DNA of 64,000 nucleotides. It comes from an uncultured virus (IMG/VR IMGVR_UViG_3300024518_004509). Lineage: Duplodnaviria > Heunggongvirae > Uroviricota > Caudoviricetes. The translations under genes were made by a program, and so were the position numbers. Each line of letters opens with the position of its first letter. Position 1 is the first letter of the stretch. Positions 13,909 to 39,504 of this stretch are shown piece by piece. The stretch lies in the IMG/VR virus record IMGVR_UViG_3300024518_004509; one strand, written 5' to 3'. The notes under the pieces were generated by a model, which saw only the letters and a program-made list of their open reading frames with translations, did no database searches and was not told the origin of the DNA.

Positions 13909-15357
13909 TTAATTCAATCTCATAATCATTTCTCCACAACTGGTTGGATCCTGAAGTTGGATACCTACCTCAGCAAGCATATGTACTTCATAACCATCCA
14001 AACCTGTTGAACGCATAGTGCTGATTGAAGCAGCTACTTCCCCGAAAGGAGTGGTAGAACCACAAACATGCCACATGGCGTTTTCAGAATTTTTCTTCGC
14101 AACCTTTCTGATGTTCGCTTTACCTTTAACAGTACCGAAGTTCAATATTGTAAATCTGTAAGATTCGATTGGCTTCTTGGTTACCGGGTGTAAAGTTCTG
14201 TTACGAACCTTATCATCATAAGGAGAAAATTCTTTAACAGTCAAAGATACACCATTCAAGAATTCAACTTTCTTGAAGTGTCCTGTTAAAGTTAAGTTGT
14301 CGCCAGTTCCGGTGATAAATGTACCAGAATTGGTTATAGTGATACCAAGTTCATTTTGTCGTGCTATAACAGCTCTGTTAAATTCCCTGATACCCATCTT
14401 ACCTGTAAGTGCAATGAAATTATAATCTCCACCCCAACGAGAAGCATTGTAGGATAAGTCCAGTAAGAACTCATCAATTGCATCATAAGTAAGTTTTGCG
14501 TAGTAATACTTATTGGCAGGAGAAATTTGTTGACGGATTCCTGCTCCGTGATATACCGGTCTTTGGTTTTTACCTTGCAATCTAACAATACCTTGAGGGT
14601 CCTTGTTATAGATAGTGTAGATAAATGATCGGTCAATCTCTTTGTACCATTGTGCAAGAGCAGTCCACTCAGCCAATTTAGTCCAAAGTTTAGTTGATTT
14701 ACCATCCTCAGAGAATAGTTCAATCACCATAACGTCTGTCGCAGCACTTCTTGATACAGCATAATGCTTTCTCAAGGTAGTCAATTGATTTTTCAATGTC
14801 ATTGGTGCAACGAAATCAGTTCCTCCACCTTTGTCAGAGAACTCTTCAACAGTAGAGAAATCCTTAGAGAATCTCGCACCTGCCAACAGTTGACTTGCAT
14901 TGATGAATTTTGTAGGATCCGGATCAGTAAGAACTGCTGTGTAAATATAATCAATACCATTATATGATACGTCAGATACTCTACATTGAGTTCCATCATC
15001 AGAAACTAAGTTATCAGAAACCTGGAATATACCTTCTTCCATTTTCCACTTGAAAGGCAGTCCACTGGTACCAGCATTACCTGATTGGAGTGGTCCGGTT
15101 ACAACGATAGCTCGTTCAGTTTGTCCGTGCAGATCCCAAGTGTATTCTCGGTTGCTGACGAACCTTGTGTTCCCAATACCTCCTGTCAACATGGACAGTA
15201 CAGTTTCATTTTGGGTACCAAATGCATAAGCCAATACAGCATCCATTCTTTCTGGCTCAGTCAAATAAGCTGCAGATAAATGGTCTGATTCCGTCATGCC
15301 AGATGGTAAAGCACGTAATTTGTGCAATTGTAAAGGTGATACATCTGTTTGAAACAT
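13909..15357 (-). CDS. Major capsid protein (crAss-like HK97 fold)
   Basis: 482 aa in the portal-scaffold-MCP order. Motifs NQLTTLRK, GAGIRQQI, TGKMGIREF, HPVTKKPIESYRFTILNFG and C-terminal GIQLQDPTSCGE. Confidence 0.88.
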   Translation of the reverse strand: MFQTDVSPLQLHKLRALPSGMTESDHLSAAYLTEPERMDAVLAYAFGTQNETVLSMLTGGIGNTRFVSNREYTWDLHGQTERAIVVTGPLQSGNAGTSGLPFKWKMEEGIFQVSDNLVSDDGTQCRVSDVSYNGIDYIYTAVLTDPDPTKFINASQLLAGARFSKDFSTVEEFSDKGGGTDFVAPMTLKNQLTTLRKHYAVSRSAATDVMVIELFSEDGKSTKLWTKLAEWTALAQWYKEIDRSFIYTIYNKDPQGIVRLQGKNQRPVYHGAGIRQQISPANKYYYAKLTYDAIDEFLLDLSYNASRWGGDYNFIALTGKMGIREFNRAVIARQNELGITITNSGTFITGTGDNLTLTGHFKKVEFLNGVSLTVKEFSPYDDKVRNRTLHPVTKKPIESYRFTILNFGTVKGKANIRKVAKKNSENAMWHVCGSTTPFGEVAASISTMRSTGLDGYEVHMLAEVGIQLQDPTSCGEMIMRLN

Positions 15358-24999: not shown

Positions 25000-25914
25000 T
25001 TAAACTTCTGGTAAAGATATATAATTTTGTTGATACATCCGTCTAAATTCCACAGCTCTTGATTTGGACACCCCTAATTTATACACCATTTCATCCAATG
25101 ACATATTAATATGATCGAGGGCCAGGAACTCCTTATATTTATCAGCAGACTTCTCAGATTTAAAAGGTGCATAGGAATTATGCTCTTCAATAACCCTCTT
25201 TGTCCTTTCTCCCATATATTTTCGAATAGTCTTGGCAGGTGTGATGTTCCCGTTGCGTACCACCATCTTTGTATTCTCTATACGAGGTGCAGTTATCTTG
25301 ACAAAAACCTCCACATCAATCAAATGCTCAGCAGCAATATGAATAGCAGATTCCATACGTTCCTTAACAGCTTCACCTCTGCAGATAGCCTTGATACGCA
25401 TCTTCTGAACAGGTGAGAACTTGCTATCCCTGTGAAACATCACTATATCCTGGTTATCCGGATACTTATAAAAAGACTTCTGCTCTGCTACCAAGAATAC
25501 CACAATAGGTTCCACCTCTTCAAATCTCAATACCGGTACAGCAATCTCTTTGGAAGATACCTGCGACTCTCTCATCTCAATTACAGAGAACTGCAGGATA
25601 ATACATTCTGTTATCTTTTTAATCATCAACTTATCAGGGTGAGGATTCAAGTACAATATTCTCTGGATAAGTTCTTTCAGGTAAGGATCCGTGATAGTCT
25701 TTATTCTGGAAGCATAGAACTTGTTGAACTTCGGTACATGAAAAGGGTTGGCAAAATACAGCACATTCTCATCTTCCATATCATTAAAGTACACCTTTGT
25801 AATGAGCCCGAAACCCTCAAGAACCTCCTTATCCCTGAACTCTACATCTTCAATACATAATTTTAATCTTACTTTTCCTGTTGTGTTCTTCCTGATTTTA
25901 AATATACTTTTCAT
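25000..25914 (-). CDS. Hypothetical protein with C-terminal HTH
   Basis: 304 aa, ending MSLDEMVYKLGVSKSRAVEFRR. Confidence 0.55.
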   Translation of the reverse strand: MKSIFKIRKNTTGKVRLKLCIEDVEFRDKEVLEGFGLITKVYFNDMEDENVLYFANPFHVPKFNKFYASRIKTITDPYLKELIQRILYLNPHPDKLMIKKITECIILQFSVIEMRESQVSSKEIAVPVLRFEEVEPIVVFLVAEQKSFYKYPDNQDIVMFHRDSKFSPVQKMRIKAICRGEAVKERMESAIHIAAEHLIDVEVFVKITAPRIENTKMVVRNGNITPAKTIRKYMGERTKRVIEEHNSYAPFKSEKSADKYKEFLALDHINMSLDEMVYKLGVSKSRAVEFRRMYQQNYISLPEV

Positions 25915-25985
25915 CTGATTTTAGTAGGGGTACCGAAAGTGTCCCATTAGTAGCCTATTACTATTAGGGCACTAACAGGACACTT

Positions 25986-26195
25986 TTAGTACTGTTGTTT
26001 AAAAGGGTGTCTTACCTGCTCAAAATCTTTCTCGGTCAACTCACCAACATTCAGGTAATATTGCAGGTACGATTCTATAGCTTCCTTAGATACTTTTAAA
26101 GGAGAACACCAAGGACAGTAGGCTCCTGTAGGATAACTGTCATACAACAGATTCCTCTTCAAGTTCCTATTCTTTATGGTTCTCCATGTTTTCAT
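25986..26195 (-). CDS. Hypothetical protein (CxxC)
   Basis: Start MKTWRT at 26195, just after the TACCTTTG box. Contains CPWC. Confidence 0.45.
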   Translation of the reverse strand: MKTWRTIKNRNLKRNLLYDSYPTGAYCPWCSPLKVSKEAIESYLQYYLNVGELTEKDFEQVRHPFKQQY

Positions 26196-26199
26196 ACAG

Positions 26200-26207
26200 C
26201 AAAGGTA
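26200..26207 (-). promoter_or_regulatory. -7 promoter box at the start of the leftward arm
   Basis: Minus strand TACCTTTG = TAnnTTTG. No well-spaced -33 box seen. Confidence 0.5.
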
Positions 26208-26350
26208 CGAAAAATTTTCAGAAAAAATACTATAGGGCAAAATAAAATTTTTATGCGGCTATTTGTGGGGGTGATATAGTAACACCACCCCCGTATCGAG
26301 TTTCGGTCCCGTTGGGCCACACTGTTTTATTCACATAAAAACTTAAAGAA

Positions 26351-26797
26351 ATGACACAAACAGAGATTAAAAACCGTTTGGCAACGGCTGCACAGGCCAA
26401 AGCCTTTAACAAAGATTTAGTAATTGCTAATGGAGCGAACCCAGCGTTGTGGGTTTTAGACACCGATGGTGCTCTATGGTTTAAGGCAACAGTCACCAGA
26501 ACATCTGAAGATAAAGGTGCTTATCTTAAGCCTTCGCATACTGCTCATGGTAACTTGTACACAACTGCTGATATGACAGATTTTGACTTCGTTCAAAACA
26601 TCTTCTCTCAACGTCCCGGTGAGAGTGAATCAGTAAATGTGATAGTTAAAGTTGCAAAGCAATCACCACTTGACGTGGATGAATCATTGGTTGAAGCACG
26701 CTATGCTGATAATCCAAAGGCTATCGCCAATTGGAAACAAGCTCGCGAACGCGAAGGTTCCGTTCGATTGGTAGCTATCGCTATCGAAGAAATATAG
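26351..26797 (+). CDS. First gene of the rightward (early) arm, hypothetical
   Basis: 148 aa with A-rich start context and its own terminator. Confidence 0.75.
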   Translation: MTQTEIKNRLATAAQAKAFNKDLVIANGANPALWVLDTDGALWFKATVTRTSEDKGAYLKPSHTAHGNLYTTADMTDFDFVQNIFSQRPGESESVNVIVKVAKQSPLDVDESLVEARYADNPKAIANWKQAREREGSVRLVAIAIEEI

Positions 26798-26816
26798 GCT
26801 GTTGCCTATATTTTTT
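26791..26816 (+). terminator. Intrinsic terminator
   Basis: AATATAGGC-tgtt-GCCTATATT followed by T-tract. Confidence 0.7.
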
Positions 26817-26825
26817 AAAGCTCTA

Positions 26826-27550
26826 CTAACTCACACGCCTCACAGTTCTTTCTCAAGGACTGTTTAGTGTCACTAACGACACTCTAAGTGGCTGTGAGTG
26901 TGGGTTTTAGAACCTTCCCCCAATAAAAGACAATTTAACTGTTTATTGCACTCATACACCAATAAATCAGTATTCATAGCATAAAATACTTAAACTATCT
27001 TCAATCAAAACTAAAACCTCGGGTAACGCAATAGCTAAGCATGAGTTCCCTGTTACTGTAATCCAAACAATGAGGTGGTAACATTAACAATGTCATGGTC
27101 TATCCAGTTGTAGAGAACCTGGACTAGATAGTTTAAGTTATAATATAGACTCTTGCTAAAAGGCCCGTAATCTTGCATAAAATAGCTCCGTAATGGTTGC
27201 AATGATAGCAGGTGGGTGCTGCCTTGCAAGAGTCTTGCCCTATTCTGAGGAGAGTCCTTGGAAATTAATGTTTGTGAGTGTCAATTAAACTCTCTTTGTG
27301 CAATGAAGTCCTTTAGCCTGCCACAGCTATGTTAGCGACTTCCACAAATATACTAATATAAGAAGCTCTACTTAAGGGTAACCTGACTTGATTGATATCT
27401 TGAACCAAGCAGCGTTAAAATTGAGCATACACATCTTAATATGGAATAGCCAAGGGTAGGATATTAGACCTGCGGCGCTGATGGTTGTATTGGTAGTACA
27501 ATCACGGTAATAAACGACACTAATGCCACTGACACTTGATCAAGTCAGTG
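26826..27550 (+). ncRNA. Tandem structured RNA domains (unknown function)
   Basis: ORF-free, with consecutive closing stems, e.g. 26988-27000/27126-27138 (13 bp), 27147-56/27226-35 and 27383-92/27539-48. Confidence 0.55.
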
Positions 27551-27563
27551 GTATAATACTTTA

Positions 27564-27624
27564 AGTCATCCAGAAGACTATAACAATTACACTGAAGAGG
27601 CTGGACGAAACAATATGTCTGTAA
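27564..27624 (+). ncRNA. Type I hammerhead ribozyme with loop-loop pseudoknot
   Basis: TTACA-CTGAAGA-G-GCTGGA-C-GAAA-C-AATAT-GTC-TGTAA. Full core, stem I TTACA/TGTAA, stem III ACA/TGT. Loop II CTGGA pairs with TCCAG in the upstream AGTC-ATCCAGAA-GACT hairpin. Confidence 0.82.
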
Positions 27625-27647
27625 AAATCATTTAAAAACTTAAAACA

Positions 27648-28016
27648 ATGGCAATGACTAAAAATGAAAAACAACTGAAACATGCACATCCTGTGCAAGT
27701 AGTGACTACATTCAAATCAACTGATGTGATAGTAGGTGGAACTGTATTCTTGACAGCTGAAGATTGTAGAGGTATTCTACGTCTCACTGATACTGAAATC
27801 TATCCTGATGTTGATGATATTATCATAGACAAAGAACTACCTGGTGACATCAAAGCAACACCTGAAGGACTGGAGCTTATAACTACGCAAGAACTTGGAT
27901 ATTTATACCAATGTTCTGATATTCTGGAAACTATCGCCAAAGGTATCTTACATACTTCAGGTAAAGCAACCAATGGTAAAGACTTACTTGCTAAACTCAC
28001 TCATATCCCTGAATAA
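27648..28016 (+). CDS. Hypothetical early protein
   Basis: 122 aa, starting 28 nt after the hammerhead cleavage site. Confidence 0.7.
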   Translation: MAMTKNEKQLKHAHPVQVVTTFKSTDVIVGGTVFLTAEDCRGILRLTDTEIYPDVDDIIIDKELPGDIKATPEGLELITTQELGYLYQCSDILETIAKGILHTSGKATNGKDLLAKLTHIPE

Positions 28017-28243
28017 TGATGAGTATAGAAATGTTGAAGAAGTTCAAATCACTCACCATAGCAGCCGATAAAGGTTATTATGGTGAGTATATTGAACAAC
28101 TACTATCAACTAGTTATAGAACAACTAGTCAGAAGATAGAGGAAGTTGAGAAGTTTGCTGATTCAAGGTTCGCCAGTGGTAAGAAATTTGGTAGAACTAT
28201 GGCAATAGAACAAATAGAACGTGAACTTGAAAGAATAAAGTAA
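28016..28243 (+). CDS. Hypothetical protein
   Basis: 75 aa, coupled through TAATG. Confidence 0.6.
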   Translation: MMSIEMLKKFKSLTIAADKGYYGEYIEQLLSTSYRTTSQKIEEVEKFADSRFASGKKFGRTMAIEQIERELERIK

Positions 28244-28244
28244 T

Positions 28245-28700
28245 CATTAAATATACGCGCTGGCACAAATACACAAAACCAGATGGATCAATCGGCACAC
28301 ACCTCGGACATTAAGTTACTGGGGAATAATGGGAGTTGTCGGGTATGTTATTTAACTCTTTTATCTAAGCAGAGGGCTTAACAGCCTAACGGTTTACTGT
28401 CTGTATTAGTCAGGCGTAGAAGAGTTTATAGCTATTATGAGGCGAGTTCGTCGTGCGATGCTAATATAAATGCGTTGCAAAAAAGAACCAGAATGGTAAG
28501 TGTCTAAGCAGGAGAGATCTTCAATACAGACTGAAATTAGTGCGATGTACGTGACGAGTACAATGGCCTATTACCCATAATAGCTTATTTATTACTAACA
28601 AATTATCAGTATTAACAATTTAAATCTTTTAATTATGTAGTGTACACTGAAGACATACAGGGGTGAGTGACAACAGCCACCCCTTCTGTATCTACATTAA
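28245..28700 (+). ncRNA. Second block of tandem structured RNA domains
   Basis: ORF-free. Closing stems 28354-64/28416-26, 28430-39/28576-85 and 28635-40/28692-97. Confidence 0.5.
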
Positions 28701-28728
28701 CATTTAAAATCCTTAAAAATCAAATAAA

Positions 28729-29073
28729 ATGAAACAATTTATTATTTTACTGCTTATAGCAGTTATGATGTCCTGTACATCACGCTCTGGTCAGAGATTA
28801 AAACATTTGGAAGCTGTTAAGGCTCAATTAGAACTTGAACAACCTAATTATTATGTGGTTGACAGTGTTACTGCCATCATGTATGAGTATACTCGGGATT
28901 CAACCGATATTAAATATACTCTGGTGGTTGATGATGTGGTAATGACTAAAGCATTTACCTATCATAGAGTATTTGAGATGATTGCTACATATCAGGAAGA
29001 CCATGTAAAAGAACTGACAGAACATCTGATGTTCACATACAATGACCAATACCTGATACCATTTAAATTCTAA
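28729..29073 (+). CDS. Putative lipoprotein
   Basis: MKQFIILLLIAVMMS-C lipobox-like signal. Confidence 0.6.
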   Translation: MKQFIILLLIAVMMSCTSRSGQRLKHLEAVKAQLELEQPNYYVVDSVTAIMYEYTRDSTDIKYTLVVDDVVMTKAFTYHRVFEMIATYQEDHVKELTEHLMFTYNDQYLIPFKF

Positions 29074-30033: not shown

Positions 30034-30255
30034 ATGACAAATTTTAAAATTACAGGCAGAAGATTCAAACGTGCTGAATCTTTTCCAAAACATGTCAAAG
30101 ATATAGATATAAAATGGTTAGTGCATTTGATATTGCATGTACCATATCCGGAAGTGATCGAAGACAAATTCACTTCAAAAGATTACATTGGAATATTAAT
30201 GCCTGAAGGCAATATACTTCATATGCATAAAGATGGACTTAAACTCTGTGGGTGA
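30034..30255 (+). CDS. Hypothetical protein
   Basis: Start MTNFK after TTTAAAATCATTAAAAATC. Confidence 0.55.
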   Translation: MTNFKITGRRFKRAESFPKHVKDIDIKWLVHLILHVPYPEVIEDKFTSKDYIGILMPEGNILHMHKDGLKLCG

Positions 30256-31028
30256 TGGAAAAATTTAAAAAAGGGGACTATATTGTAGTATTACCTACAA
30301 TACCAGATAATACAACATATTTAAAAGTTAATCATGTGCATCATCAAGATGACGATGGTTCATTTATTAAAGCATATTTACCACATAAAGGTACAGTGTG
30401 GCATAGTAATATATACTTTAAAAAGAAAGAATGGTGGAGATATGCCTCTTTAAAGGAAATACAACATTTCAAAGTTGTTAATAAACCCTATAATATTAAT
30501 GATATTGCTGTAAAATCTGAATCATTTGGTAAAAAGGGTGATTACATATATGAAGGACACCGAAGAGAAGATACAGTGTATTTCAAACAATTTCAATATG
30601 TTTCTGGTACAGGTCAGATGATCTATAAAGGATTGGGTGAAATAGGTACACCTATGTGGTTACCACATATACCTGCATTTAAATTACGTACAGAATATAG
30701 TATTAAAATTGATAGTAATGGAGCTAAAGAGTTCACACGTTTGGCTACTCAACGTGAAATTGAGACTTATGCTCAAGAACTTGATAAATGGTGTCAACAG
30801 CATCCTGACATATCAATAGCAGAGAAATATTTTGAACCACGAAGATGGACTAATGCAAAAGAGAAAGGTTCTGATTTTGATATTGATAAGGATTATGTAG
30901 ACAGTGCAATGGTTCTTGGTGTAGATTCAAAGGGTAATATTCAAGAGCAACCATTTACACCTGATGAATGTTTTGAAAAGAAAAGAATACGGGATATACC
31001 TCTTATCCCTGTTAAAAAGAGGATATAA
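30252..31028 (+). CDS. Hypothetical protein
   Basis: 258 aa. Internal duplicated KKGDYI...R.A...EI units. Confidence 0.65.
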   Translation: MMEKFKKGDYIVVLPTIPDNTTYLKVNHVHHQDDDGSFIKAYLPHKGTVWHSNIYFKKKEWWRYASLKEIQHFKVVNKPYNINDIAVKSESFGKKGDYIYEGHRREDTVYFKQFQYVSGTGQMIYKGLGEIGTPMWLPHIPAFKLRTEYSIKIDSNGAKEFTRLATQREIETYAQELDKWCQQHPDISIAEKYFEPRRWTNAKEKGSDFDIDKDYVDSAMVLGVDSKGNIQEQPFTPDECFEKKRIRDIPLIPVKKRI

Positions 31029-36469: not shown

Positions 36470-37255
36470 ATGAAAACAATGGATTTATCTTTTCTACAAG
36501 ATGTAGAACTGGAAGCTGTAAAAAAAGTAGCAGCTAAATCAAGAACATCAACACCTAAATTACCTACAGATGCAGATCTTAGAGTATTCAGTAATGGTCG
36601 AGTGTACCCAAGTGCCAAATTTGTAGAAGCACACAATTTGGAATTCAAACCTAAAGAAGTCCTTGACGGAGGTTCTGAACCAACTGTTGTTGTTGGAAAC
36701 GGATTGGAAATATTCTCTTCAAAGGATTGGGGTATGATAAAAGGACAACTTCCTGAAGAATTACTTTTCTGTGCACCGGTTGAAAAAGCATTACCTAAAG
36801 TAGATATGTGGGCTTCCACTAAATATACTGAAGAGAATGAGCCTAAAGCTTCTGTGTTCACTCAAGGGGCAAACACTTTTGCCAAGGACAGACTGGTTCC
36901 AATGATAGCTGATATCTATGGTATTAACTGGAATGAAACTGAATATGTGGATATGACATTTGTAGAAGATCAGGTTATCGCATCTCCTAATGGATTGTAT
37001 CACCTTCCTAAAATTGTATCCACCGGGAAACATAAAGGGAAAGCTGATTACATCAGAAGAGAGAACCTTACAATATGTCCACTTATTGTACATTCTGTAA
37101 AGGCTAAAGCACCTATTGATGCACCTGCTGAAAATGCACCTGAATTGGATAAAAAGGATTCTAATGGAACTACTGATCCTGGTGCTGACTGGGCAAAGGA
37201 TTTAGGGGCAAAGGATAAAGAAACCACAGACAAAAAAGAAGAAGCTAAAGCATAA
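36470..37255 (+). CDS. Hypothetical replication-module protein
   Basis: 261 aa directly upstream of PolA with an acidic flexible tail (possible SSB-like protein). Confidence 0.6.
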   Translation: MKTMDLSFLQDVELEAVKKVAAKSRTSTPKLPTDADLRVFSNGRVYPSAKFVEAHNLEFKPKEVLDGGSEPTVVVGNGLEIFSSKDWGMIKGQLPEELLFCAPVEKALPKVDMWASTKYTEENEPKASVFTQGANTFAKDRLVPMIADIYGINWNETEYVDMTFVEDQVIASPNGLYHLPKIVSTGKHKGKADYIRRENLTICPLIVHSVKAKAPIDAPAENAPELDKKDSNGTTDPGADWAKDLGAKDKETTDKKEEAKA

Positions 37256-39504
37256 TGGCTACTCTCAAATTTATAGGTAATACAGAGGACTGCTCCTACA
37301 AGAGCAGTTCTTTTGTTGCTTTTATGGAATGGTTTGACAAACAGAAGATAATCGGTTTTGATACAGAAACTAATGTGGTAGAATCTATACTCGAGAGACA
37401 TCTTAAGGTGATGGCTATTTCAGATGTGAACGGTGACGTTATCTATGTGTTTGACTGGGAATATATGCGTTTGAATGAACAGCAATGGATATTAGAGCAA
37501 TTGCCTAAGAAACTATGCATTATTCAAAATGTATCCTTTGATTATCAGGTTTTAAAGAAACTAGGTTGCATACTTGAAAAGGTATGGGACACTATGCTTG
37601 CCGAGCAGGTTCTTACCAATGGACTTTCTGCAGAGAAAGGATTCCACGGTCTCCAAGCCATTTACCTTCGACGATTTAACATCAATATATCGAAGGAAGA
37701 ACAATTAACCTTTGGACAGGGTCCTTATAATGATAAGCAAATACAGTACGCCGCAATAGACGTCCTTAAACTAGGACTTCTACGAAAAATTCAGATAAAG
37801 GAAGCCAGAGCTGTTGACAAACGCATCAATCAGCGTGGAAACAGAGGACTCATGAAGACCCTTTGGTGGGAAAATGAGTTCGTGAAAGTTGTAGCTGACA
37901 TGGAATATGAAGGTGTTCGTATAGACAAGGATAAATGGTACGCCATTGAAGATGATATACGTCCCATATTTGACACAGAGCTCAAATACCTCAACGATAA
38001 AGTTGTAGAAGATTTCTGGGATACTCTTATAGCCAACAACTGGATATCAGACAAAGATGAGTTCGTAGAACCTATATGGTCATCTTCCAAAAAGAAGAAA
38101 CTCATACTTGATAAGGTGTATGACTTTGAGATAGAGAAAACAGCTAAGACTGAACTTAAGAAATATCTTGAGCAGTACGACCCTGATTTTCCTTCAGGTT
38201 TGAAGCTATCAGGTAAATCATGGGAAGACTCAGACTATCCGACTACACTTCAGGGAAAGTTTTCCATATTGAAGTTATTGGTGTTGGACAGCAAAGATAA
38301 CAAAGAGTATGTACATAAAGCTCTTGATGGGTTCTTACTCACTAATATGAAACAATATTGTATAGAGCAAGGTTGGTTACGGCCAGCTAACACGCTGAGT
38401 CTTAATTGGGCTTCACCTATACAGCGCCTTAAGATATTCCAGGCAATCAATCCTGCTATTGAATCCACTGGCAAGGAAGTTTTAGAAGACTATATCAGTT
38501 CTCACGTCATTATACAACACTACCTTAAGTGGAGTGAAGTAGAGTATCAGTTAAAGAACTTTGGCAGAAGATTTTACGACAACCATGTAGAATTGGATGG
38601 GAAGCACAGAACTCGTTACAACCAAGTGTTGCAAACAGGTCGCCTGTCATCTGTCAGTCCTAATTTACTGAATATACCACGTAAGATAAAAGTATATCGA
38701 ACGGCATTCATCCCGGATCCAGGGTTTGAAATGATCGATGCAGATTATGATGGTCAGGAACTTGTTATTGTTGCAAATATAGCCAATGAGAAATCATGGC
38801 TTGAATACTTGGAAAAAGGGTATGACCTGCACAGTAAGAACTCTGAGCTTATATTTGGTGACGAGTGGAATAAAGCCACTGAAAAAGGATGTGCTTTTTA
38901 TGAGGGAGACGACATAATTGGATATGCATATAAAAAATGTGAATGTGAAGGACATGTAGATATGAGGGATAATTCCAAGGCAGTATCATTTGGTTCTATT
39001 TATGGAATCAGTTATCTGTCACTGGCATTTCAATTAAAGATATCAGAAGGAAGAGCCAAGTTCATATTACAGAGGTTCTTCGAAATTGTTCCTGCTATTG
39101 CAGACATGATGGATCGCTTTGGAGCTTACGCATTGGATACTGGTCATATTATTGAACCAGTCTTCGGACGTATACGTTATTTTGATAAGTGGAAGTTAGC
39201 TGTACCCAAAGAACATGGTTCTATTGAAAGAGCAGCTTTCAACACACCTATTCAATCAGCAGGCTCAGCCATTCTGAAGATAGCATTTGTACTTATGCGC
39301 AGGTGGATCAACCAAAATAACCATCAGCATAATATCAAATTGCTTATGCCATATCATGATGAGACAATAGCTCAATCTTTACCGGCGTTCACTACTCTGG
39401 CCAAAGAGAAAGTAGCACATTATATGATGTTGGCTGCACGCGTTGCAGGATTTGATGTCAAGGCAAGTGCCAAATCAGGAAAGTCATGGGCAGAAGCACA
39501 TTAG
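37255..39504 (+). CDS. polA: DNA polymerase, family A, with 3'-5' exonuclease
   Basis: Exo motifs GFDTET, QNVSFD, YAAID. Pol motifs TGRLSS..PNLLNIP, DADYDGQE, KAVSFGSIYG, NTPIQS and YHDE. Confidence 0.95.
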   Translation: MATLKFIGNTEDCSYKSSSFVAFMEWFDKQKIIGFDTETNVVESILERHLKVMAISDVNGDVIYVFDWEYMRLNEQQWILEQLPKKLCIIQNVSFDYQVLKKLGCILEKVWDTMLAEQVLTNGLSAEKGFHGLQAIYLRRFNINISKEEQLTFGQGPYNDKQIQYAAIDVLKLGLLRKIQIKEARAVDKRINQRGNRGLMKTLWWENEFVKVVADMEYEGVRIDKDKWYAIEDDIRPIFDTELKYLNDKVVEDFWDTLIANNWISDKDEFVEPIWSSSKKKKLILDKVYDFEIEKTAKTELKKYLEQYDPDFPSGLKLSGKSWEDSDYPTTLQGKFSILKLLVLDSKDNKEYVHKALDGFLLTNMKQYCIEQGWLRPANTLSLNWASPIQRLKIFQAINPAIESTGKEVLEDYISSHVIIQHYLKWSEVEYQLKNFGRRFYDNHVELDGKHRTRYNQVLQTGRLSSVSPNLLNIPRKIKVYRTAFIPDPGFEMIDADYDGQELVIVANIANEKSWLEYLEKGYDLHSKNSELIFGDEWNKATEKGCAFYEGDDIIGYAYKKCECEGHVDMRDNSKAVSFGSIYGISYLSLAFQLKISEGRAKFILQRFFEIVPAIADMMDRFGAYALDTGHIIEPVFGRIRYFDKWKLAVPKEHGSIERAAFNTPIQSAGSAILKIAFVLMRRWINQNNHQHNIKLLMPYHDETIAQSLPAFTTLAKEKVAHYMMLAARVAGFDVKASAKSGKSWAEAH

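Follow-up and report, generated by a model that had tools for sequence, protein, structure and literature searches.

A pseudoknotted type I hammerhead ribozyme predicted to define the mRNA leader of a rightward gene array in a crAss-like phage

The window analyzed here is a 64,000-nt stretch of DNA from an uncultured virus (IMG/VR record IMGVR_UViG_3300024518_004509). Because ORF 13909-15357 (- strand) matches the Pfam family Crass_capsid at 402.7 bits, we regard the window as belonging to a crAss-like phage; a family A DNA polymerase is encoded at 37255-39504 (+). Large genes run leftward from about position 25900 and a long rightward array begins at 27648, so that the ribozyme described below heads the rightward array, past an ORF-poor stretch of about 760 nt. 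The first ORF after the ribozyme (27648-28016, + strand) opens with ATG, encodes 122 amino acids, and matches no Pfam or PHROG family; a search among 5.8 billion proteins recovered only the protein itself. Likewise, none of 10 small neighboring ORFs tested against Pfam and none of 12 tested against PHROG matched a family. The designation of ORF 27648 as an "early gene" in the original prediction for this locus is an argument from gene order.

The ribozyme itself is a complete 62-nt element on the + strand, spanning 27563-27624. It opens with the helix IV hairpin (27564-27579), in which AGUC (27564-67) pairs with GACU (27576-79) around an 8-nt loop, AUCCAGAA, that carries the 5' strand of a pseudoknot (UCCAG, 27569-27573; core CCAG, 27570-73). 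An A-rich linker, AUAACAA (27580-27586), leads from helix IV to stem I and aligns with the family consensus AUAAAAU, from which it departs by one C in place of an A, a C that is also present in the copies at loci L027 and L046. The 5' strand of stem I (UUACA, 27587-27591), which pairs with UGUAA at 27620-24, is followed by the catalytic core C3 U4 G5 A6 A7 G8 A9 (CUGAAGA, 27592-27598; hammerhead consensus CUGANGA). Stem II (27599-27606) is a single G10.1-C11.1 pair, G27599-C27606, closing the loop GCUGGA, and within this loop II lies the 3' strand of the pseudoknot, CUGGA (27601-05), complementary to UCCAG. The core resumes with G12 A13 A14 and A15.1 (GAAA, 27607-27610), invariant in the family alignment, and stem III (27610-27618) consists of ACA (27610-12) and UGU (27616-18), forming A15.1-U16.1, C-G, and A-U pairs around the loop AUA. 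The GUC triplet occupies 27617-19 with C27619 as position 17, and the alignment to the family model places the predicted scissile bond 3' of C27619 (27619/27620). The topology is that of type I, with stem I open (27587-91/27620-24) and stem III a hairpin. When we re-read the sequence from 27400 to 27800, every element named in the original prediction lay on the + strand exactly where it had been placed.

Comparison with Rfam using Infernal bears out the original description of a type I hammerhead with a one-pair stem II and a loop II pseudoknotted to an upstream hairpin, and identifies it as RF03152, the RAGATH-1 or pseudoknot-containing (PK) hammerhead. The match at 27563-27624 (+) covers the model in full (positions 1-77 of 77), and all 15 conserved core positions agree with the consensus. 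Its score of 56.2 bits falls 0.1 short of the Rfam gathering cut-off of 56.3, with E = 4.7e-9 for a 301-nt sequence and E = 1e-6 for the whole window searched on both strands with all 4227 families, and it is the sole Rfam match at E <= 0.1 across the whole window. Because of the 0.1-bit difference, a default Rfam scan of the window at the gathering threshold lists no match; the shortfall itself arises because stem III lacks about 13 positions of the model. Other ribozymes, tRNAs, and known RNA families were sought in the window, and in 25900-27600 in particular, and none was found. Since about 250,000 windows were scanned, an E-value of 1e-6 alone permits a fraction of one false match, and it is therefore the comparative data that carry the case.

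These data come from a degenerate core pattern that retrieved 47 loci in viral contigs. After removal of five loci with no helix IV hairpin (L008, L015, L022, L045, and L048), one truncated where its contig stops (L009), and duplicates, 33 unique full-length copies remained, including the copy in the window. RF03152 matches all 20 of 20 representative copies over its full length at 50.0-85.8 bits; 13 lie above the cut-off and seven below it (50.0-56.1 bits), so the score of 56.2 bits in the window is within the range of the family. Helix covariation was assessed in a MAFFT alignment of the 18 of 33 copies whose stem III is 28 nt or shorter. There, 96.8% of helix cells pair, against 25-43% when partners are slid, and the covariation score of 0.704 (at most 0.136 when slid) was reached by none of 500 shuffles. 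All five pairs of stem I covary with changes on both sides, as do the three outer pairs of helix IV around an invariant inner C-G; the stem II G-C pair is invariant in all 18 aligned copies. Taken together, these comparisons of sequence establish both membership of the family and conservation of its fold, and they mark the element at 27563-27624 as a real copy of an already catalogued and crystallized ribozyme class: a new example of a known thing.

Conservation can be judged at the family level only, as the lineage of the window has no intermediate relatives. The nearest record, G001, is a near-identical contig that carries an identical ribozyme and hence adds no independent evidence. A blastn search of 26800-28800 against the INPHARED phage collection gave no match, and searches for relatives through ORF 27648, ORF 25000-25914, and ORF 30252-31028 returned only G001 or nothing. 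A metagenome scan with an exact 20-mer yielded six loci, none of them of the window type. Three are of the type represented by locus L012 (one a variant), and the remaining three (L104, L107, and L108) were set aside as chance matches in GC-rich coding DNA with no helix IV. Synteny between the window and the L012-type phages amounts to a single weak protein match at 32% identity.

The pseudoknot is the most distinctive part of the element. In the window, CCAG (27570-73) faces CUGG (27601-04), with a possible further pair between U27569 and A27605. Pseudoknot pairs were parsed by script across the family because MAFFT loses the register of these columns, and at least four Watson-Crick pairs are kept in all 33 of 33 unique copies. 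The selection of copies had fixed the outer CC/GG and AG/CU letters, so that an inserted pair provides the only free test: in nine of nine copies whose loop II is longer by one base, the hairpin loop has gained the base complementary to it (U-A seven times, A-U once, C-G once). The pseudoknot originally drawn as UCCAG/CUGGA therefore stands in its four pairs CCAG/CUGG, which are backed by covariation across the family; the fifth, U27569-A27605, can form here but is not conserved, as most relatives have G, A, or C at the position of U27569. The purines that flank the helix, 3' of CCAG and 5' of CUGG, also change jointly. Most copies combine G with A, the window (A27574/G27600) and loci L012, L018, L025, and L052 combine A with G, and L026 combines A with A. 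This swap fits the G:A cis-Watson-Crick pair that caps the pseudoknot helix in the crystal structure (PMC11300833).

Cleavage after C27619 would fall 28 nt before the start codon of ORF 27648, the distance given in the original prediction and confirmed here by the ATG frame of 122 amino acids at 27648. The resulting leader (27620-27647, + strand) would begin with the five nucleotides UGUAA left from the 3' strand of stem I; 16 of its 28 nucleotides are A, it contains no Shine-Dalgarno-like run, and it is unpaired in the minimum free energy (MFE) fold. This spacing recurs in the family. We examined 35 unique PK-type loci with 1500-nt flanks, having dropped six further loci that gave no parse. 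An ATG ORF of at least 40 amino acids starts 21-34 nt after the cut at 17 of the 35 and within 21-51 nt at 21, while six have none within 400 nt. Among 8000 control positions, an ORF start lies within 20-40 nt at 8.6%, for a binomial p of 7e-10 across loci that are phylogenetically non-independent. The 28 nt in the window is mid-range for the 21-34 nt class. Family leaders are also A-rich (51% A vs 35.5% overall), and a Shine-Dalgarno-like run occurs in 0 of 19 PK-type leaders. At the other end of the element, 10 of 35 loci have an upstream ORF that stops 0-15 nt short of helix IV. Those copies must be co-transcribed with the gene in front of them, and many copies are thus intercistronic.

Directly before the ribozyme in the window lies a sigma70-like promoter candidate (27529-27557, + strand) composed of CTGACA, a 17-nt spacer, and TGgTATAAT, which matches the consensus at 11 of 12 positions plus the TG. 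It is the best-scoring intergenic consensus match in the window; matches of at least 10 of 12 are scattered throughout, mostly inside genes, and no shared or conserved promoter motif was seen before other family copies. The start predicted from this promoter, at about 27563/27564, coincides with the first base of the ribozyme; the primary transcript would then probably begin with the ribozyme, and cleavage would remove only the ribozyme itself. Sigma70-like promoters are reported to be used by the host RNA polymerase in the crAss-like phage phi14:2 (10.1101/2020.03.07.982082). Overlapping the -35 element and spacer is an inverted repeat (27526-27551; CCACTGAC, 10 nt, GTCAGTGG) with a perfect 8-bp match and an inner palindrome, and no second copy was found elsewhere in the window. 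As RNA, it would form an 11-bp hairpin of -16.5 kcal/mol that lies 12 nt before the ribozyme, and it could serve either as an operator or as an RNA hairpin.

The stretch directly upstream of the ribozyme, 26800-27562, runs for about 760 nt without convincing ORFs. Folded as the + strand, it reaches an MFE of -203.9 kcal/mol (z = -3.84 against 20 shuffles), and neither an Rfam family nor a promoter was identified within it. At its far end, a terminator-like hairpin on the + strand (26790-26820; AAATATAGG, 6 nt, CCTATATTT, and a T-run behind them) overlaps the stop codon of ORF 26351-26797. Elsewhere in the family, hairpins of -8 kcal/mol or lower occur within 45 nt before helix IV at 44% vs 24% (Mann-Whitney p = 0.018; loci L057-L103). 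Several of these pre-ribozyme hairpins have T-runs (for example L063, L077, L093, and L102), and in L106 the pairing of the hairpin is kept by compensatory changes relative to L105.

We consider it probable that the PK type I hammerhead at 27563-27624 cleaves itself after C27619 and gives the mRNA of ORF 27648 a defined leader. The rightward transcript would fold such that a loop-loop pseudoknot with the helix IV hairpin takes the role of helix II. Self-cleavage 3' of C27619 would then free a piece of about 56 nt with a 2',3'-cyclic phosphate at its 3' end. The mRNA for ORF 27648 and the genes downstream of it would start with a 5'-OH, on an unstructured, A-rich leader of 28 nt that lacks a Shine-Dalgarno sequence. 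The predicted end chemistry (2',3'-cyclic phosphate on C27619, 5'-OH on U27620) follows the established hammerhead mechanism (PMC11300833). The purpose would be a defined short leader and 5' end, whatever the transcription start, and the benefit may lie in the initiation of translation, in stability, or in both, in a host of the Bacteroidota type that does without Shine-Dalgarno pairing. We infer cleavage by this particular copy, use of the promoter at 27529-27557, and such a benefit to the phage.

It is also possible, if less probable, that the active ribozyme sits inside a longer RNA begun upstream, within 26800-27562 or beyond, in which case cleavage would detach an upstream RNA from the mRNA, as the original prediction had it, and act as intercistronic processing. 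The 10 family loci with an ORF end just before helix IV agree with such an arrangement, as do the better-than-shuffled folding of the upstream 763 nt, the 11-bp hairpin 12 nt before the ribozyme together with the modest enrichment of hairpins before family copies, and the long, highly transcribed early intergenic regions reported for phi14:2 (10.1101/2020.03.07.982082). A strong sigma70-like promoter set to start exactly at the ribozyme argues against it, and the terminator-like hairpin suggests that rightward transcription of ORF 26351-26797 may stop before the non-coding stretch, in which no alternative promoter or RNA family was recognized. A start at the promoter and a start farther upstream can, moreover, coexist.

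A second question concerns stem III. With 3 bp and a 3-nt loop, the stem in the window ranks as the shortest of all 33 unique copies that could be compared, and nearest-neighbor energies do not favor it: the hammerhead fold computed without the pseudoknot amounts to -0.3 kcal/mol with stem III and -2.1 kcal/mol without, a cost of +1.8 kcal/mol, and a competing fold in which GGACG pairs with UGUCU reaches -6.3 kcal/mol. The pseudoknot duplex alone contributes -7.2 kcal/mol. Given the weak fold and its competitor, activity must rest on the pseudoknot and on tertiary, coaxial stacking. We therefore weighed whether the copy is decaying or very slow, its cleavage crippled by a 3-bp stem III, and persists as a relic or a mere structured leader. 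The length of the stem, the score below the Rfam cut-off, and the preference of the thermodynamic model for another fold point in that direction, but the core positions and the pseudoknot are all intact, and we judge this reading improbable. A second lineage, the L012 type (three viral and three metagenome contigs), likewise has a 3-bp stem III; its stem I (GUUUA/UAAAC) and its helix IV (CCUC/GAGG) have both changed in a compensatory way, its site is GUA, and it would be cut 21 nt before an ORF. Its variant L106 gains a fourth pair, for a stem of 4 bp. The existence of this lineage argues that short stems III are tolerated. Furthermore, Perreault et al. 2011 (PMC3088659) describe weak stems III as a very frequent trait of natural hammerheads, and the coaxial stacking of helix III on the pseudoknot helix seen in the PK hammerhead crystal structure (PMC11300833) could support a short stem here.

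Dimerization through stem III was considered and rejected on inspection: 27610-27618 is not self-complementary, and two copies would form three plus three pairs around a 3x3 mismatch. Lunse and colleagues are said to have described in 2016 hammerheads of Penelope-like elements in which a palindromic loop closes a stem III of just 1-2 bp and two copies dimerize through one long stem III.

Finally, a chance hammerhead resemblance in AT-rich intergenic DNA is very hard to credit, since the very large number of windows scanned, the score just under a curated cut-off, and an MFE z-score of +0.29 for the ribozyme region are set against an E-value of 1e-6 over a full-length alignment, a match that extends to parts a generic hammerhead can do without (helix IV and its loop, the A-rich linker, and the pseudoknot complement), and a start-codon distance the same as that of other family members.

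The leader-defining hammerhead that we favor can be set beside several known systems. The closest is the crystallized RAGATH-1 or PK hammerhead (PDB 8YDC; PMC11300833), the discovery of which that study credits to Weinberg et al. 2015 in Nat Chem Biol (Breaker laboratory). In that structure, a 6-bp pseudoknot helix made of four Watson-Crick pairs with A:A and G:A caps stands in for helix II, the linker strand sits in the minor groove of helix IV, and the measured cleavage rate is 16 per min (PMC11300833). The copy in the window shares the type I topology, the identical catalytic core, the G10.1-C11.1 pair as stem II, the four-pair pseudoknot between loop II and the helix IV loop with its purine-pair flanks, and the A-rich linker. 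It differs in having a stem III of 3 bp with a triloop rather than the consensus of about 9 bp, an A:G rather than a G:A purine cap, a U-A in place of the A:A of the crystal form, and one C in the linker.

Similarly, Perreault et al. 2011 (PMC3088659) reported, on the strength of disruptive and compensatory mutants, that a hammerhead with a one-pair stem II needs a pseudoknot for fast cleavage, and they also described hammerheads that flank genes in phage DNA. The example in that report resembles the copy in the window in combining a single stem II pair with a pseudoknot. It is, however, a type II hammerhead whose pseudoknot joins loop I to a tail 3' of stem II, whereas the element here is type I and uses a separate 5' hairpin. 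The pistol ribozyme resembles the PK hammerhead in how its helices are connected and in its overall fold (PMC11300833), but it has a different core sequence and a different general acid. Pistol identity was rejected here, as no pistol model was among the three matches found at E up to 10 on 27450-27750. Lastly, RNA viruses of fungi and plants are reported to carry, in their 5' UTRs, type I hammerheads that enable translation initiation (PMC13725137). Like the element in the window, these ribozymes are type I, lie in a viral 5' leader, and are cut shortly before a coding region; they belong to eukaryotic viruses with cap-independent translation, and have neither the PK architecture nor a demonstrated phage link.

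Family loci other than the one in the window also lie mainly in phages of this kind. Crass_capsid is found in 25 of the 40 contig records behind the family loci and in 17 of the 20 records that are at least 90% complete, from which we conclude that the PK hammerhead, as sampled here, is largely an element of crAss-like phages. Our search of the literature returned no publication that links hammerheads to crAss-like phages, and the papers it returned on the PK hammerhead are structural or applied; the supplements of Weinberg 2015 and 2017 may already describe a phage context, and the term "RAGATH" is absent from the main text of Weinberg 2017 (PMC5737381).

Several further features of these contigs deserve mention in their own right. 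Three records each carry two same-strand PK hammerheads about 4.1 kb apart that bracket a block of small ORFs: G006 (loci L012 and L027), G021 (L033 and L044), and G027 (L039 and L030). At L032, a type III hammerhead (positions 29-85, - strand; RF00008, 49.8 bits against a cut-off of 48.5) lies no more than about 100 nt from a PK hammerhead on the same strand. The Crass_capsid matches of G008, G016, G022, G033, G035, and G036 contain one or two in-frame TAG codons, which suggests that these phages translate TAG as an amino acid residue. The capsid match falls into two pieces about 0.9 kb apart in G002 and G038, the pattern that an intron or another kind of insertion would produce.

In summary, the copy in the window adds no new chemistry, as the ribozyme class to which it belongs is known, fast, and structurally solved. 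It does add to the evidence that crAss-like phages are the main home of the class and that its members lie a fixed, short distance ahead of start codons. It also illustrates that the Rfam cut-off just misses real copies with a short stem III, seven of 20 clear members from viral contigs falling below it. Should it prove active, this natural minimal form of 62 nt, with its 3-bp stem III, would define how small a member of the class can be.

We tentatively propose that crAss-like phages use PK hammerheads as a standard device for trimming leaders, leaving a 5'-OH 21-34 nt before the start codon and an A-rich leader that has no Shine-Dalgarno sequence, and that in the window this device has been fused to a promoter. 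If true, each gene so equipped would receive the same kind of short unstructured leader, whatever RNA polymerase or start site produced its transcript, much as a synthetic ribozyme insulator does, and such a leader may aid Shine-Dalgarno-independent initiation or 5'-end-dependent stability in Bacteroidota. In the promoter-fused form, each primary transcript would shed its 5'-triphosphate end together with the ribozyme, and would do so with the most minimal stem III seen in the class. For the role of phage hammerheads more broadly, the spacing rule between cut site and start codon offers a testable handle.
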